This document shows, piece after piece, positions 3,998 to 25,503 of a stretch of DNA of 30,808 nt. Origin of the DNA: an uncultured Bacilli bacterium (GTDB lineage Bacteria > Bacillota_I > Bacilli_A > RF39 > UBA660); contig CANQIM010000001.1 in NCBI GenBank assembly GCA_947624075.1, forward strand, positions 1-30,808, given 5' to 3'. The notes under the pieces are model-generated. The model was given only the letters and a program-made list of their open reading frames with translations, searched no databases and had not been told where the DNA came from. Both the position numbers and the translations under genes were made by a program. The first letter of the stretch is position 1. Every line of letters begins with the position of its first letter.

Positions 3998-4818
3998 TTT
4001 TCATAATTATCTAGAAAACTTGTATAGTCACCATTACTTTTAAAACCAAGTACACAATCTAAATTAATATTATCTAGTGCTTTAAAGATGTTATCGTCTA
4101 CCTTAGGATTTACTTTTCTTAATTCTTTGATGAGCTTTTTCATCTCTTCTCTTTTAGAAGTATTTTCGTCATTTAAACTACAATTTTCAGTAAAGCGACA
4201 GGCACAATTTAAAAAAGTTAAATCATTGTATTTTTTCCAATCTAAAATATCTTGTTCTTTGACTAAATATAAAGGTCTAATTAATTCTAAACCTGGAAAA
4301 TTTTCACTATGAAGTTTAGGCATCATTGTTTTTATTTCTGATGAGTAAAGCATTGATAAAAGAGTGGTTTCAATTACATCATCAAAGTGATGACCTAAAG
4401 CTATTTTGTTACAGCCTAACTCTTTAGCCTTATTATAAAGACAACCTCTACGCATTCTAGCACATAAGTAACAAGGGCTTCTATCAATATTAGAAACAAT
4501 GCCAAAAATATCACTATCAAATATAATAATTGGAATATTTAAAAGCTTCGCATTTTCTTCTATTTGTTTTCTGTTTTGCTCATTGTAGCCAGGATCCATC
4601 ACAACATAATGGGCTGAAAAAGAAATATCACTATGACGCTCTAACTCTTGAATACATTTGGCAAGTAGAAAAGAATCTTTACCACCACTGATACAAACCA
4701 TGATGTGATCATTTTCATTTATCAATTGATACTCTTTTATAGCTTTTACAAAGCGAGCCCAAATGACTTTACGAAATTTTTTTATTATGCTTCTTTCTAT
4801 TTCTTGATACTTTTCCAT
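3988..4818 (-). CDS. ttcA: TtcA-family tRNA 2-thiocytidine biosynthesis protein (PP-loop ATPase, Fe-S)
   Basis: SGGKDS PP-loop, SPCYLCARMRRG CxxC, ALGHHFDD, LIRPL and a C-terminal CACRFTENC cysteine cluster. Confidence 0.8.
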   Translation of the reverse strand: MEKYQEIERSIIKKFRKVIWARFVKAIKEYQLINENDHIMVCISGGKDSFLLAKCIQELERHSDISFSAHYVVMDPGYNEQNRKQIEENAKLLNIPIIIFDSDIFGIVSNIDRSPCYLCARMRRGCLYNKAKELGCNKIALGHHFDDVIETTLLSMLYSSEIKTMMPKLHSENFPGLELIRPLYLVKEQDILDWKKYNDLTFLNCACRFTENCSLNDENTSKREEMKKLIKELRKVNPKVDDNIFKALDNINLDCVLGFKSNGDYTSFLDNYEKDK

Positions 4819-13882: not shown

Positions 13883-15238
13883 CTAATTTAAATAATAGAT
13901 ATCATAAATGCGAATAGTTTTTACATGTTTACCTTTATTGATAACATAATTTAGAGCTTTTTTGTCCATTTGAGAAGATTTATCAAGCTCTCCTTTAGCT
14001 ATTATTACTAAACAATTCTTCTTTTTTCTTAATGTTTCTAAGATTTTTTTACTTCCATTAATTCCCCAGTTACCTTTGTTAATTACATCTAATTTATCTA
14101 TTTTTAAATCATTATTTATTTTAAAGAAGAAGGCATTAGGAGTAAAAATAATTATTTCTTGTGAAGCATTTTCATTAATAAAATTATTTATTTCCTCTAT
14201 AAATTCTAAACTTTGTTCATCAATTAGACGATAATTAAAATCTTTTAATTTATTTGGAAAGATAAATTTACCTCCATTAATATTAGTTTGGAATGTGAAT
14301 AAACCCATCAAAAAGATTATTAATAATACCACTATTTTATAGTTAAAAAATATTCTTTTGTTTTTTAATATTAAAATAATTATAAAAGCTCTAAATGCTT
14401 CAAAAAAGTGACCAAAATCGAAAATAGGTATTAGGATAGAATAAAAAGCTAAAACATATGAATAAGTAAGAACTTTTCTTTTATCTTTTTCTTTTATTAT
14501 AAAAATAATAGTTATAATTATTAATATTAAAGATATTAGAAAATAAAAATCTAATCCATTATTGTTACCTGTAAAATCAAATAAACCTAAAAAGCATAAA
14601 TCTATAAAGTAAAAAAAAGTTTTACTAATGATAAGATATATTAGAAAAATAATGAGTGGTATGCTTAAGCCAAGAAAGCGTTTGGACAGTTTCCCTTTAT
14701 TTTTATGAAAAAAGCAGATGCTTGGTAAAATTAAAAATAAGCCAATGTTTTGTTTGGTTAGAATACATATTCCTATTAGAAAACCAATTAAGTAATCATT
14801 ATCTATTTTTTTGAAGATATTTTTTTCTTTATTTTCTATATATAATATTATTATTAGTAAAATAAACATGAATGTATTGTAGTTAGGATATGAAAAATTG
14901 TGTGGAAAAAAGAAAAAAAGGATAATGAGATAGGCTTTTTCTTTAAACATTCTAAATAGTAAGAAAGAGCAAAAAGTTAATAATAGTGAAAAGACAATGT
15001 CTACTGTTAAAATATTGGATGAAAATATTTTTAAAAAAAGAGACATAAAAAATGGATAAAATGGCGTTATAACCATATTAAAATCTTTATAAGGAAGATA
15101 ACCTTTACCAATAGAATAAGCAAAACCATAACTCCATATCTCATCAAAATTTACTGGACTTATGAATAGATTATAAAGTAAAAAGAGCAAAAAAAGAGCA
15201 AAATACTTTAAAATTTTTTTTAATTTAACTGTTTTAAT
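13883..15238 (-). CDS. GT-C-like polytopic membrane protein, array paralog 5 (probable ATT start)
   Basis: DEIWSYGFAYSIGKGYLPYKDFNMVITP, YN, IG...G...LTKQ, PIFDFGH and GNWG motifs shared with four paralogs. The frame is open upstream of the TTG at 15190 to an ATT at 15238 preceded by a GGGGGTG SD. Confidence 0.65.
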   Translation of the reverse strand: MKTVKLKKILKYFALFLLFLLYNLFISPVNFDEIWSYGFAYSIGKGYLPYKDFNMVITPFYPFFMSLFLKIFSSNILTVDIVFSLLLTFCSFLLFRMFKEKAYLIILFFFFPHNFSYPNYNTFMFILLIIILYIENKEKNIFKKIDNDYLIGFLIGICILTKQNIGLFLILPSICFFHKNKGKLSKRFLGLSIPLIIFLIYLIISKTFFYFIDLCFLGLFDFTGNNNGLDFYFLISLILIIITIIFIIKEKDKRKVLTYSYVLAFYSILIPIFDFGHFFEAFRAFIIILILKNKRIFFNYKIVVLLIIFLMGLFTFQTNINGGKFIFPNKLKDFNYRLIDEQSLEFIEEINNFINENASQEIIIFTPNAFFFKINNDLKIDKLDVINKGNWGINGSKKILETLRKKKNCLVIIAKGELDKSSQMDKKALNYVINKGKHVKTIRIYDIYYLN

Positions 15239-22419: not shown

Positions 22420-23496
22420 TCACCTAATTATCTTTCGTATTTCATTATATATTCTAGTTGCTGAATCCTTTATTCCTAGTTTCTGACTACTTTCTTTCAT
22501 TTTACTATAAATTTCTTCATTACAAAAGAGGTTATCTATTTCTTTTAATAATTTTTCTTTGGAAAATTCTTCCTCAGTTACAATAGTACAAGCACCAACT
22601 GATTCTAAATCTTTGGCATTTTTGTATTGATGATTATTAGTAACATAAGGGGATGGAACTAAAATAGCAGGTAAACCTATAGCAGTGATTTCCGCAATAG
22701 TAGAAGCTCCTGCACGTGATACTAATAAATCAGTATCTTTTAAAAGATTAATCAAATTATCAAGAAAAGGATAAATTTTAACATTTTTAGGAACAGCTAA
22801 ATTCTTATAGGATTCATAATAATTATTTCCAGTAATGATAAGTACTTGATAATCTTTATCTTGGAAAGAAGGAATTAATTCTTTTAACTTATCAGTCATT
22901 GTCAGAGAACCAAGGGAACCCATGACAAAAACGACTAATTTTTTATCTTCTATAAAACCTAACTCTTTTTTTAATAAAGGTTTTTCTGAAATAATTTCTT
23001 CACTACGAGGATTACCTGTGTAGACTGTTTTCTTTTTAGAAAAGTACTTGACGCTATTAGGTAGTGAGACACAGATTCGATTAGCAAAAGAAGAAATAAA
23101 TTTATTAGAAACACCAGGAATGGAGTTTTGTTCATGAATTAAAATGGGATACTTAAGTTTTTTGGCGGCATAAAGAACAGGAGCTGTAATATATCCACCG
23201 GCACCAATTACGACATCAGGATGGAAGTCGCTAATAATTTTTTTAGCTTCTTTGATAGCATTATTATACTTTTTTAAAACACTTATATTAGAAAAAATAT
23301 TTTTTCTATTTAACCCAGCCATTTCGATACCAACAAATTTTATATTCATTTTAGGAATTATATCTTTTTCCATACGATCAGTTGTACCAATATACAAAAT
23401 CTCACTATTTGGTTCTTGATCTTTTATTTTATTGATAATGGCAATAGCTGGATAAATATGTCCTCCTGTACCGCCCGCAACGACTATAGCTCTCAT
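22420..23496 (-). CDS. murG: Undecaprenyldiphospho-muramoylpentapeptide beta-N-acetylglucosaminyltransferase
   Basis: GGTGGHIYPA, GGY, HEQN, GNP, GSLGS, SRAGASTIAE, HQYKNA motifs. Confidence 0.97.
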   Translation of the reverse strand: MRAIVVAGGTGGHIYPAIAIINKIKDQEPNSEILYIGTTDRMEKDIIPKMNIKFVGIEMAGLNRKNIFSNISVLKKYNNAIKEAKKIISDFHPDVVIGAGGYITAPVLYAAKKLKYPILIHEQNSIPGVSNKFISSFANRICVSLPNSVKYFSKKKTVYTGNPRSEEIISEKPLLKKELGFIEDKKLVVFVMGSLGSLTMTDKLKELIPSFQDKDYQVLIITGNNYYESYKNLAVPKNVKIYPFLDNLINLLKDTDLLVSRAGASTIAEITAIGLPAILVPSPYVTNNHQYKNAKDLESVGACTIVTEEEFSKEKLLKEIDNLFCNEEIYSKMKESSQKLGIKDSATRIYNEIRKIIR

Positions 23497-23517
23497 CAAA
23501 TCACCTTCGGTTAATTA

Positions 23518-23632: not shown

Positions 23633-23661
23633 TTGTAAAGGCTTACTTATTATGATAAAAT
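23633..23661 (+). promoter_or_regulatory. Putative sigmaA promoter for tmcAL-gmk
   Basis: TTGTAA (23633-23638), 17-bp spacer, TAAAAT (23656-23661) with a TG extension at 23653-23654. Confidence 0.6.
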
Positions 23662-23687
23662 ACATTAAAAAGAAAGGGGGAATTTCT

Positions 23688-24830
23688 ATAAAAGCAATTG
23701 GTATTATTGCTGAATATAATCCTTTTCATAATGGACATTTGTATCATTTAAAAGAAATAAAAAAGAAATATAAGGACTATGTAGTAGTTTTAGTTTTAAG
23801 TGGTAGTTTTACCGAGCGTGGTGAAGTTAGTCTTATTAGTAAAGATAAAAAAGTAAAAATAGCTTTAGAAGCAGGAATTGATTTAGTTGTGGAGTTGCCT
23901 TTTGCTTTTGCAGTACAGAGTGCTGACTATTTTAGTTATGGAGCAATTACTATTTTAGAATATTTAGGTGTTGAAAAGGTTGTATTTGGAAGTGAATCTA
24001 ATAAATTAGAAGATTTAGAAGAGATTGCTAGATGTCAAATTGATAATCCTGATTTTGATAAGTTAGTTAAAATCTATAGTAAATTTGGTAATAACTACCC
24101 TACTGCTTTAGCTTTAGCTTTAAATGATTTAACTGATAAAAAGATAGATACTCCTAATGATTTGTTAGGGATTAGTTATATAAAGACAATTTTAAAATAT
24201 AATTACAAAATTAAATATGATTCGATAAAGCGAATAAATAATTATCATAGTTTAAGTCTTGAAAAAATTTCTTCAGCTAGTGCAATTAGAAAAGCTTTAA
24301 GGGATGGGGTTGATATAAAAGAACAAGTACCTAGCTTTGTAATGAATTACTTAGATGAGCTGCATTATATAGATGATTATTTTGACTTTTTGAAATATAA
24401 AGTTTTAGTAGATGATGATTTATTAAAGTATCAAACTATAGATGAGGGAATGGCAAAGAAATTAAAAGTGGAAATAAAAAAAGCAAGCTCTTATCAAGAA
24501 TTAGTTAGCAATTTAAAGCAGAAAAGATTAACAGAAAGTAAGATTAAAAGAATGCTTTTACATATACTTTGTGGTTTCACAAAAGAGGAAGCTAAGAGAT
24601 TGCAGGAAATTAAATATATTAGAATTTTGGGATTTAATGAAACTGGAAGAATATATTTAAATAGTATTAAGAAGGATATTAGAGTTCCTCTTATTAGTAA
24701 GTTAAAAAGAGAAAAAGAGGAAATGTTAGAATTAGAATTAAAGTATCAAACTATTTATGATATTTTAAGTAAAAAGAAAATTAATGAGGAAAAAGTTTTT
24801 CCAATAAGATGGGAGGATAAAAATGATTAA
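23688..24830 (+). CDS. tmcAL: tRNA(Met) cytidine acetate ligase (YlbM family nucleotidyltransferase); probable ATA start
   Basis: AEYNPFHNGH HIGH-like motif, SGSFTERGE, DLVVELP, FGSE, PNDLLG, SASAIR. The ORF track start is ATG 23652; ATA 23688 aligns with the family Met1 and follows an AAAGGGGG SD. Confidence 0.88.
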   Translation: MKAIGIIAEYNPFHNGHLYHLKEIKKKYKDYVVVLVLSGSFTERGEVSLISKDKKVKIALEAGIDLVVELPFAFAVQSADYFSYGAITILEYLGVEKVVFGSESNKLEDLEEIARCQIDNPDFDKLVKIYSKFGNNYPTALALALNDLTDKKIDTPNDLLGISYIKTILKYNYKIKYDSIKRINNYHSLSLEKISSASAIRKALRDGVDIKEQVPSFVMNYLDELHYIDDYFDFLKYKVLVDDDLLKYQTIDEGMAKKLKVEIKKASSYQELVSNLKQKRLTESKIKRMLLHILCGFTKEEAKRLQEIKYIRILGFNETGRIYLNSIKKDIRVPLISKLKREKEEMLELELKYQTIYDILSKKKINEEKVFPIRWEDKND

Positions 24831-25503
24831 GCAAAAAAAGACAGGTCAAGTTATAGTTATTTCTTCACCTAGTGGTGGTGGAAAAGGAAGTATTATTCAA
24901 GGGCTATTAAAAAATGATAATAAATCAAGAGTTCTTTCAGTATCAACAACTTCACGAGCAATGAGAGAAAATGATATTGAAGGGGTTACTTATAATTTTG
25001 TTTCTAAAGAAGAGTTTGAAGAACTAATTAAGAAAGATTATTTTTTAGAATATACAAATTATGTAGGAAATTATTATGGTACACCAAGAAATTTTATTAA
25101 GGATAAGTTAGAAGAAGGAATAGATGTTATTTTAGAAATTGAAATTGAAGGAGCATCTAATATTAAAAAGTTAATTCCAGAAGCCATATTTATTTTTATA
25201 ATGCCACCTTCTTTGAAGACGCTAGTTACAAGATTAAAAAAGAGAAATACCGATAGTAATGATAAGATTATTGAAAGATTTAATACAGCTTATAAGGAAA
25301 TAAATGAAGTAACAAAATATAACTATGTTGTTGTTAATGATGTATTGGAAGATGCTATTGAAAAGGTGGAAGCTATTATTAAAGCAGAAAAATGCCGAGT
25401 TGATCGAATTGAAGAAGTTTATCTTGATACAAAAGAGGAAGAAATTCACGAGTTGTTAATGGATGAAGAATTTGATAATACAAATTTAGCGGAGAAGATT
25501 TAG
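24823..25503 (+). CDS. gmk: Guanylate kinase
   Basis: SPSGGGKGS P-loop, SVSTTSR.MR, EGVTYNFV, FLEY, YYGTP, IFIMPPS; GGAGG SD; acidic C-terminal extension. Confidence 0.95.
   Translation: MIKQKKTGQVIVISSPSGGGKGSIIQGLLKNDNKSRVLSVSTTSRAMRENDIEGVTYNFVSKEEFEELIKKDYFLEYTNYVGNYYGTPRNFIKDKLEEGIDVILEIEIEGASNIKKLIPEAIFIFIMPPSLKTLVTRLKKRNTDSNDKIIERFNTAYKEINEVTKYNYVVVNDVLEDAIEKVEAIIKAEKCRVDRIEEVYLDTKEEEIHELLMDEEFDNTNLAEKI

Follow-up and report, generated by a model that had tools for sequence, protein, structure and literature searches.

The tmcAL gene of an uncultured Bacilli bacterium from the rabbit gut very probably begins, as judged from its sequence, at a weak ATA codon that stands behind an unusually strong ribosome-binding site. 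The gene lies in a window of 30,808 nt (the whole stretch of DNA that was analysed) from a MAG of 27.6% GC, here called G000, which comprises 1.07 Mb in 134 contigs and is 66% complete. The reading that we hold to be likely is that translation of tmcAL starts at the near-cognate AUA at 23688, that this start is served by a conserved promoter and an extended Shine-Dalgarno (SD) sequence, that output would be low and IF3-dependent, and that the arrangement belongs to a clade-wide habit. The near-cognate start looks like a habit of the lineage that lowers protein output and not like the TmcAL-specific feedback loop that an earlier note on this DNA had put forward.

The tmcAL coding sequence (23688..24830, plus strand) is an intact ORF of 380 codons plus stop with dN/dS values of 0.06–0.17, and its sequence places it in the TmcAL family, with a predicted ac4C34 activity. 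The product matches PF05636 over its full length (1e-114, 384 bits against a cut-off of 27) and the NF010191 equivalog model with 379.6 bits (cut-off 360), and both models start at profile position 2 on residue 14, which is the codon directly after the ATA at 23688. A sequence search of solved structures aligned Met1 of B. subtilis TmcAL (PDB 5Y0N-5Y0Q; E = 1.5e-62) with this ATA and also matched T. maritima TmcAL (5Y0R; 8.6e-56). This very position is where the family models, like the TmcAL structures of B. subtilis and T. maritima, begin; the ATA is therefore the predicted start, and the alignment of the ATA with the family start that the earlier note had drawn is borne out. The codons that follow are AAA GCA ATT GGT ATT ATT GCT GAA TAT AAT CCT. 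Further downstream lies the HxGH nucleotidyltransferase motif HNGH (23727..23738, plus strand), whose residues H14, N15, G16 and H17 are invariant in our alignment A1. The first in-frame canonical start downstream of the ATA is the TTG at 23739..23741 on the plus strand; it sits directly 3′ of HNGH, as the earlier note had said, and its use would delete the HxGH motif. The TmcAL of a congener, G001, carries SNGH in place of the otherwise invariant HNGH (L002:1575-1586, P0003); this replacement is seen in two independent assemblies, in a gene that is otherwise intact and constrained.

The gene is flanked by murB-murG on the minus strand and by gmk, encoding guanylate kinase (24823..25503; PF00625, 5e-48), on the plus strand. 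The gmk gene overlaps the tmcAL stop by 8 nt and the tmcAL-gmk order is kept in all relatives fetched, and the two genes are probably part of the same operon. The murG gene (22420..23499, minus strand; PF03033 and PF04101) is divergent from tmcAL, so that no upstream plus-strand gene is able to supply read-through transcripts into tmcAL. A promoter-like site was also found on the minus strand at 23546-23518.

Upstream of the ATA, on the plus strand, lie a −35-like hexamer, TTGTAA (23633..23638), and, 17 nt after it, an extended −10, TGaTAAAAT (23653..23661), in which TG occupies 23653-23654 and TAAAAT 23656-23661. The positions that the earlier note gave for TTGTAA, the 17-nt spacer, TAAAAT, the ATG at 23652, the SD AAAGGGGG and the ATA at 23688 are all exact. 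Hexamers of this kind are by themselves no better than chance (3 sites found and 4.1 expected in shuffles), and the promoter call therefore rests on genus-wide conservation. In a 5′ alignment of all genus members and extra assemblies, three blocks are conserved, namely the −35, the extended −10 and the SD, and the intergenic DNA is otherwise diverged. TTGTAA, TTGAAA or TTGTCA is found at the same aligned position of the −35 in genus members, and TGnTA(A/G)AAT is conserved in G000, G001, G003, G004, G005, G006, G007, L034 and L211. The conserved TTGTAA-17-TGnTAAAAT promoter would transcribe tmcAL from a predicted transcription start site (TSS) near 23668.

The extended SD AAAGGGGG (23673..23680, plus strand) can pair with the assumed anti-SD CCUCCUUU over 8 bp, including one G-U pair, and is followed by a spacer of 7 nt (aatttct, 23681-23687) and then by the proposed ATA start (23688..23690, plus strand), which aligns with the family Met1. 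For all duplex energies given here the anti-SD was assumed to be the usual Firmicute ...AUCACCUCCUUUCU; a search for the 16S 3′ end in G000, and a pattern search in 8/8 MAGs of the genus, showed that none is assembled. With this assumed anti-SD, the duplex energy for the ATA at 23688 is −15.4 kcal/mol, compared with −3.6 for the ATG at 23652, and, when the best canonical SDs of 887 long ORFs of this genome are ranked, lies past their 5th percentile (−13.2). In the mechanism that we propose, the ordinary initiator tRNA-fMet would read the AUA at 23688, positioned there by the long SD pairing (AAAGGGGG with its 7-nt spacer), and the predicted N-terminus of the protein would be (f)M-KAIGIIAEYNPF / (f)M-KAIGIIAEYNPFHNGHLYHLK. 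The weak AUA would lower output and make it dependent on IF3, and the strong SD may compensate in part.

The earlier note would have counted a conserved ATA behind the SD in the tmcAL 5′ ends of related genomes as decisive, and there ATH stands behind a strong SD in six species-level lineages, with ATG elsewhere. The codon is ATA in G000/L033 and in G004/L041, ATT in G001, in G002/L037-L042 (G002 and four further assemblies) and in L034-L036 (GCA_947594675-type contigs), and ATC in G006. Relatives were found by a contig scan with alignment A1; a scan with a single protein gave none. The G002 gene has an in-frame TAA 18 codons before the ATT, with no ATG, GTG or TTG in between, and the first canonical start after the ATT comes only 258 codons further on. 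This combination of a stop and no canonical codon forces a non-canonical tmcAL start, and only the G002-type loci are fully unambiguous in this way. In G006 an in-frame ATG is present 19 codons upstream of the ATC; it immediately follows a stop and precedes the −10. All of the ATH tmcAL genes are intact (377–381 codons), with dN/dS of 0.06–0.15 within species and 0.08–0.17 between species; dS between species exceeds 1, and the ATH state has thus outlasted synonymous saturation. SD strength follows the start codon: duplex energies in the ATH lineages are −12.2 to −15.4, against a median of −9.15 in 96 canonical-start tmcAL genes (anti-SD assumed), and the nearest ATG relatives, G003 and L211, have AAATGGGG (−8.8) where the ATH lineages have AAAGGGGG.

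Outside the clade, a canonical ATG, TTG or GTG start is found in 22 relatives of other genera and at 74/75 diverse Bacilli loci, the single exception being G002 itself. The ATH start at tmcAL is, on this sequence comparison, a trait of one clade and not a recurrent property of the gene. In a protein tree, the ATH rows and the ATG lineage G003/P0007 form one clade with support of 100/100. The tree as it stands needs two start-codon changes, and its well-supported branches are also compatible with a single change. The start-codon pattern of rseP (see below) favors one ATG-to-ATH change with G003/P0007 as sister over one loss plus one reversion.

Near-cognate starts in this genome extend well beyond tmcAL. 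We scanned the whole MAG for strong SDs at ORF 5′ ends without a canonical start and compared the sites with 446 SD-led canonical ORFs. At least 12 other ATH starts were identified in G000, together with two more genes that have ACG where relatives have ATG. ATA is found at infC (C104:149, ORF 149-676, confirmed by TIGR00168), a comEA-like gene (C81), a LOG-family gene (C116) and two PDDEXK_2 genes (C27 and C85); ATC at a DUF2229 gene (C54) and two ORFs without assignment (C103 and C12); and ATT at a GT-C paralogue (window position 15238, minus strand). With translation from the odd codon, the Pfam models of several of these proteins have their first matched residue at positions 2–9. We discarded as false positives of the scan an internal GGTGGH in murG, a frameshift site of prfB and those sites that had an ATG next to them. 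The prfB-like site, on the minus strand of C24 (reverse-complement ~960-980), looks like a classic prfB programmed +1 frameshift site, with GGAGG, a spacer and CTT TGA C, after which the RF2 frame runs on (IPNKKLQLQQL...). The GT-C-like paralogue, a membrane protein (ORF 13886-15238, minus strand), has its ATT behind TAGGGGGTG, 5 codons after a stop, and no canonical start for 16 codons.

The choice of codon at these starts is conserved or patterned across the genus. The infC start is ATA in two species (G000 and G001) and ATC in six, in each case behind a conserved ATGGAGGTGTTAGGT (loci L032/L203 and L204-L210); since only 7% of Ile codons are ATC, its overrepresentation at starts points to selection acting on the start codon's third base. 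The DUF2229 gene has an ATH start in 6/6 species that carry it. At rseP (C41:6912-6920) and cvpA (C97:989-997), G000 reads ACG ACA ATT where relatives have ATG xxx ATH. The rseP start is ACG in G000, G001, G002, G004 and G006, CTG in G003, and ATG in G005 and G007, and the ACG species are exactly the five species of the genus with ATH at tmcAL. The comparison covered the genus loci L178-L185 and L196-L202, and the SD is best aligned to the ACG, at −15.4 with the assumed anti-SD. ACG (0.36%), CTG (0.06%) and ATC (0.68%) are rare codons in the genome yet occur precisely at ancestral start positions, which is not ordinary codon drift, and the sequences indicate that ACG and CTG at rseP and cvpA probably serve as start codons. 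Judged by sequence, roughly 3% of the SD-led genes of the clade, infC among them, appear to start with ATA, ATT or ATC or, probably, with ACG or CTG.

The decoding machinery of the genus is standard. Three distinct CAU tRNAs are present, the initiator, elongator tRNA-Met and tRNA-Ile2. The initiator is canonical (C1:A72, three G-C pairs, C32/A38), the elongator has U32/C38 (G000 C39, G006 and G001) and tRNA-Ile2 has C32/A38. TmcAL selects elongator tRNA-Met by positions 32 and 38 and rejects the initiator (2026 review, PMC13602947), and the tRNAs of the genus fit this identity rule: the elongator substrate of TmcAL is present and distinguishable. The earlier note had itself cautioned that the initiator is not a known TmcAL substrate, and both the canonical, distinct initiator and the selection by positions 32 and 38 agree with that caution. 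The tilS gene is present in 8/8 genomes of the genus, and AUA (3.4% of codons) is used more often than AUG (2.0%). We also weighed a code in which ATA means Met and reject it, because conserved Ile positions are occupied by either ATA or ATT and because both tilS and tRNA-Ile2(CAU) are present. The window encodes a second PP-loop ATPase at 4213-4707 (minus strand), which scores 70 bits against the TilS N-terminal model and so stays below the cut-off of 93.6; this protein is kept in 8/8 genus members and is distinct from the true tilS on contig C68.

The main structural alternative to initiation at the ATA is a start at the in-frame ATG at 23652..23654 (plus strand), 12 codons upstream, which would give a TmcAL with a 12-residue Lys-rich extension, MIKYIKKKGGIS, and a predicted N-terminal peptide of MIKYIKKKGG / MIKYIKKKGGISIK, the ATA being an internal Ile that replaced the ancestral Met. 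This ATG is in frame in G000/L033, G001 and G004-L003, it is the start chosen by automatic gene callers (P0001-P0003), it has a weak AAAGG 10 nt upstream, and transcripts from an unrecognised upstream promoter could yield the longer protein. However, its SD is worth only −3.6 kcal/mol against the perfectly spaced −15.4 SD of the ATA, the extension lies outside the family profile, and G002 has no such ATG although its gene is still intact and constrained. The ATG lies inside the extended −10 and upstream of the predicted TSS, and this −10 is conserved genus-wide whatever the frame. Species whose tmcAL starts at ATG (G003, G005, G007, L211 and L212) keep the −10 and the ATG or GTG inside it just as well; there the embedded codon either is out of frame or runs into an in-frame stop. 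The ATG shares the tmcAL frame in 3/9 lineages, the rate expected by chance. The placement of this ATG within a promoter element by the earlier note thus stands, and the ATG is most likely not the start. Moreover, the essentially identical TmcAL proteins of L003 and L041 have leaders that differ by a 2-nt poly-A indel downstream of ATG 23652; a coding sequence could not tolerate such an indel. On this evidence we regard initiation at ATG 23652 as quite improbable. Among G004-like strains (L003/L041, P0004-P0006), the poly-A run that separates the −10 from the SD differs in length by 2 nt and 3 nt, and this hypervariable homopolymer could modulate tmcAL expression. That the ATA is a mistake of sequencing or assembly, or the mark of a gene in decay whose start codon is gone, is barely conceivable. 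One transition in an AT-rich MAG would suffice to turn ATG into ATA, and the G001 copy has SNGH in place of HNGH. Yet the ATA and the SD recur in L033, an assembly made from a different sample (98% protein identity), and Logan contigs from the probable source run and two other studies list no difference at 23688-23690. This site coverage consists of contigs and not raw reads, the bin 23678-23731 is swamped by EYNPFHNGH contigs of other organisms, and variants are listed only from 10% upward, so that a minor one at 23690 could be missed. Decay is further opposed by ATH in six lineages with dS above 1, dN/dS of 0.06–0.17 and full-length ORFs, in a genome of 27.6% GC where open frames decay quickly.

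A different question is whether the AUA start has a function tied to TmcAL itself. The earlier note had proposed that TmcAL synthesis rises when AUA/AUG discrimination falls, in an infC-like feedback specific to tmcAL. The gene does start, in our reading, at AUA, infC offers a formal analogy, and with AUA at 3.4% and AUG at 2.0% of codons such discrimination matters. Against this proposal, 4/6 lineages carry ATT or ATC, and misreading of these two by unmodified tRNA-Met is not known; at least 12 unrelated genes of the genome have ATH starts, and about 96 other tmcAL genes start with ATG, TTG or GTG, so that there is no independent recurrence. Initiation at AUA uses the initiator tRNA, and TmcAL acts on elongator tRNA-Met only (PMC13602947). 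The inventory of tRNA-Met, tRNA-Ile and tilS described above, all standard (U32/C38 in the elongator, C32/A38 in the initiator and tRNA-Ile2, tilS in 8/8 genomes), lends the feedback no support. We therefore consider the feedback loop highly improbable and have dropped, as unsupported, the idea that TmcAL senses AUA misreading through its own start codon. What stands of the earlier interpretation is initiation at the ATA and not at ATG 23652, which is strongly supported.

Initiation of tmcAL at the ATA as part of a lineage habit has practical and broader consequences. Standard gene callers mis-start or truncate these proteins: a database entry of the tmcAL clade (P0011, G002-type) begins after HxGH, and other entries begin at the −35 TTG or the −10 ATG. 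Such mis-called starts mean that homology-aware start calling is needed for these gut Bacilli MAGs. The clade-wide habit, in which near-cognate codons, ACG and CTG probably among them, make up about 3% of starts, is a more interesting lead than tmcAL alone, and in this reduced-genome clade the habit is roughly ten times commoner than in S. aureus. A further possibility, which we think doubtful, is that the clade has loosened or re-tuned its start rule (ATA, ATT, ATC, ACG and CTG with a long SD, in ~3% of genes) to give an IF3-sensitive, low-output regulon in which TmcAL is perhaps held low. If such a rule holds, members of the regulon would include infC, tmcAL, rseP, cvpA and the comEA-like gene. 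As a speculation, TmcAL may be held low in this AUA-rich genome since an excess could acetylate C34 of tRNA-Ile2 and compete with TilS.

These findings provide a further case, conserved over six lineages whose synonymous divergence is past saturation, of what was recently reported for Bacilli, namely that low protein output is set by coupling a weak AUH start to an extended SD. In S. aureus, AUA or AUU starts with extended SDs are found at infC, ccpN, cvfC1 and citZ and give ~10–30% of the output of AUG (PMC13009471), the infC start being AUA (PMC13009471). In E. coli the output from AUA, AUC or AUU is 1–2% of that from AUG (10.1101/063800). The tmcAL ATA can be assigned from its sequence to this known class, as a near-cognate start with an extended SD like those of S. 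aureus infC, ccpN and cvfC1. The S. aureus sites lie in the same class, Bacilli, and share the near-cognate AUH, the unusually long SD, the optimal spacing and the conservation among relatives. They differ in number and identity, with four such sites in S. aureus, where tmcAL is not among the described cases, and ~13–15 in this 66%-complete MAG, which are known from sequence alone. The comparison extends to infC AUU/AUA autoregulation and to the AUU of E. coli pcnB, in which a weak AUH makes output IF3-dependent (PMC13009471; 10.1101/063800), and G000 has its own infC ATA. The product of infC acts on the selection of its own start, in contrast to TmcAL, which has no known action on the initiator tRNA or IF3, and tmcAL would thus be at most a passive member of an IF3-sensitive set. 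Finally, B. subtilis TmcAL (YlbM) and T. maritima TmcAL are homologous to the G000 protein over the full length and share its N-terminal block, xKA[IV]G..EYNPFHNGH, but their genes start with ATG, TTG or GTG, unlike the ATA found here.
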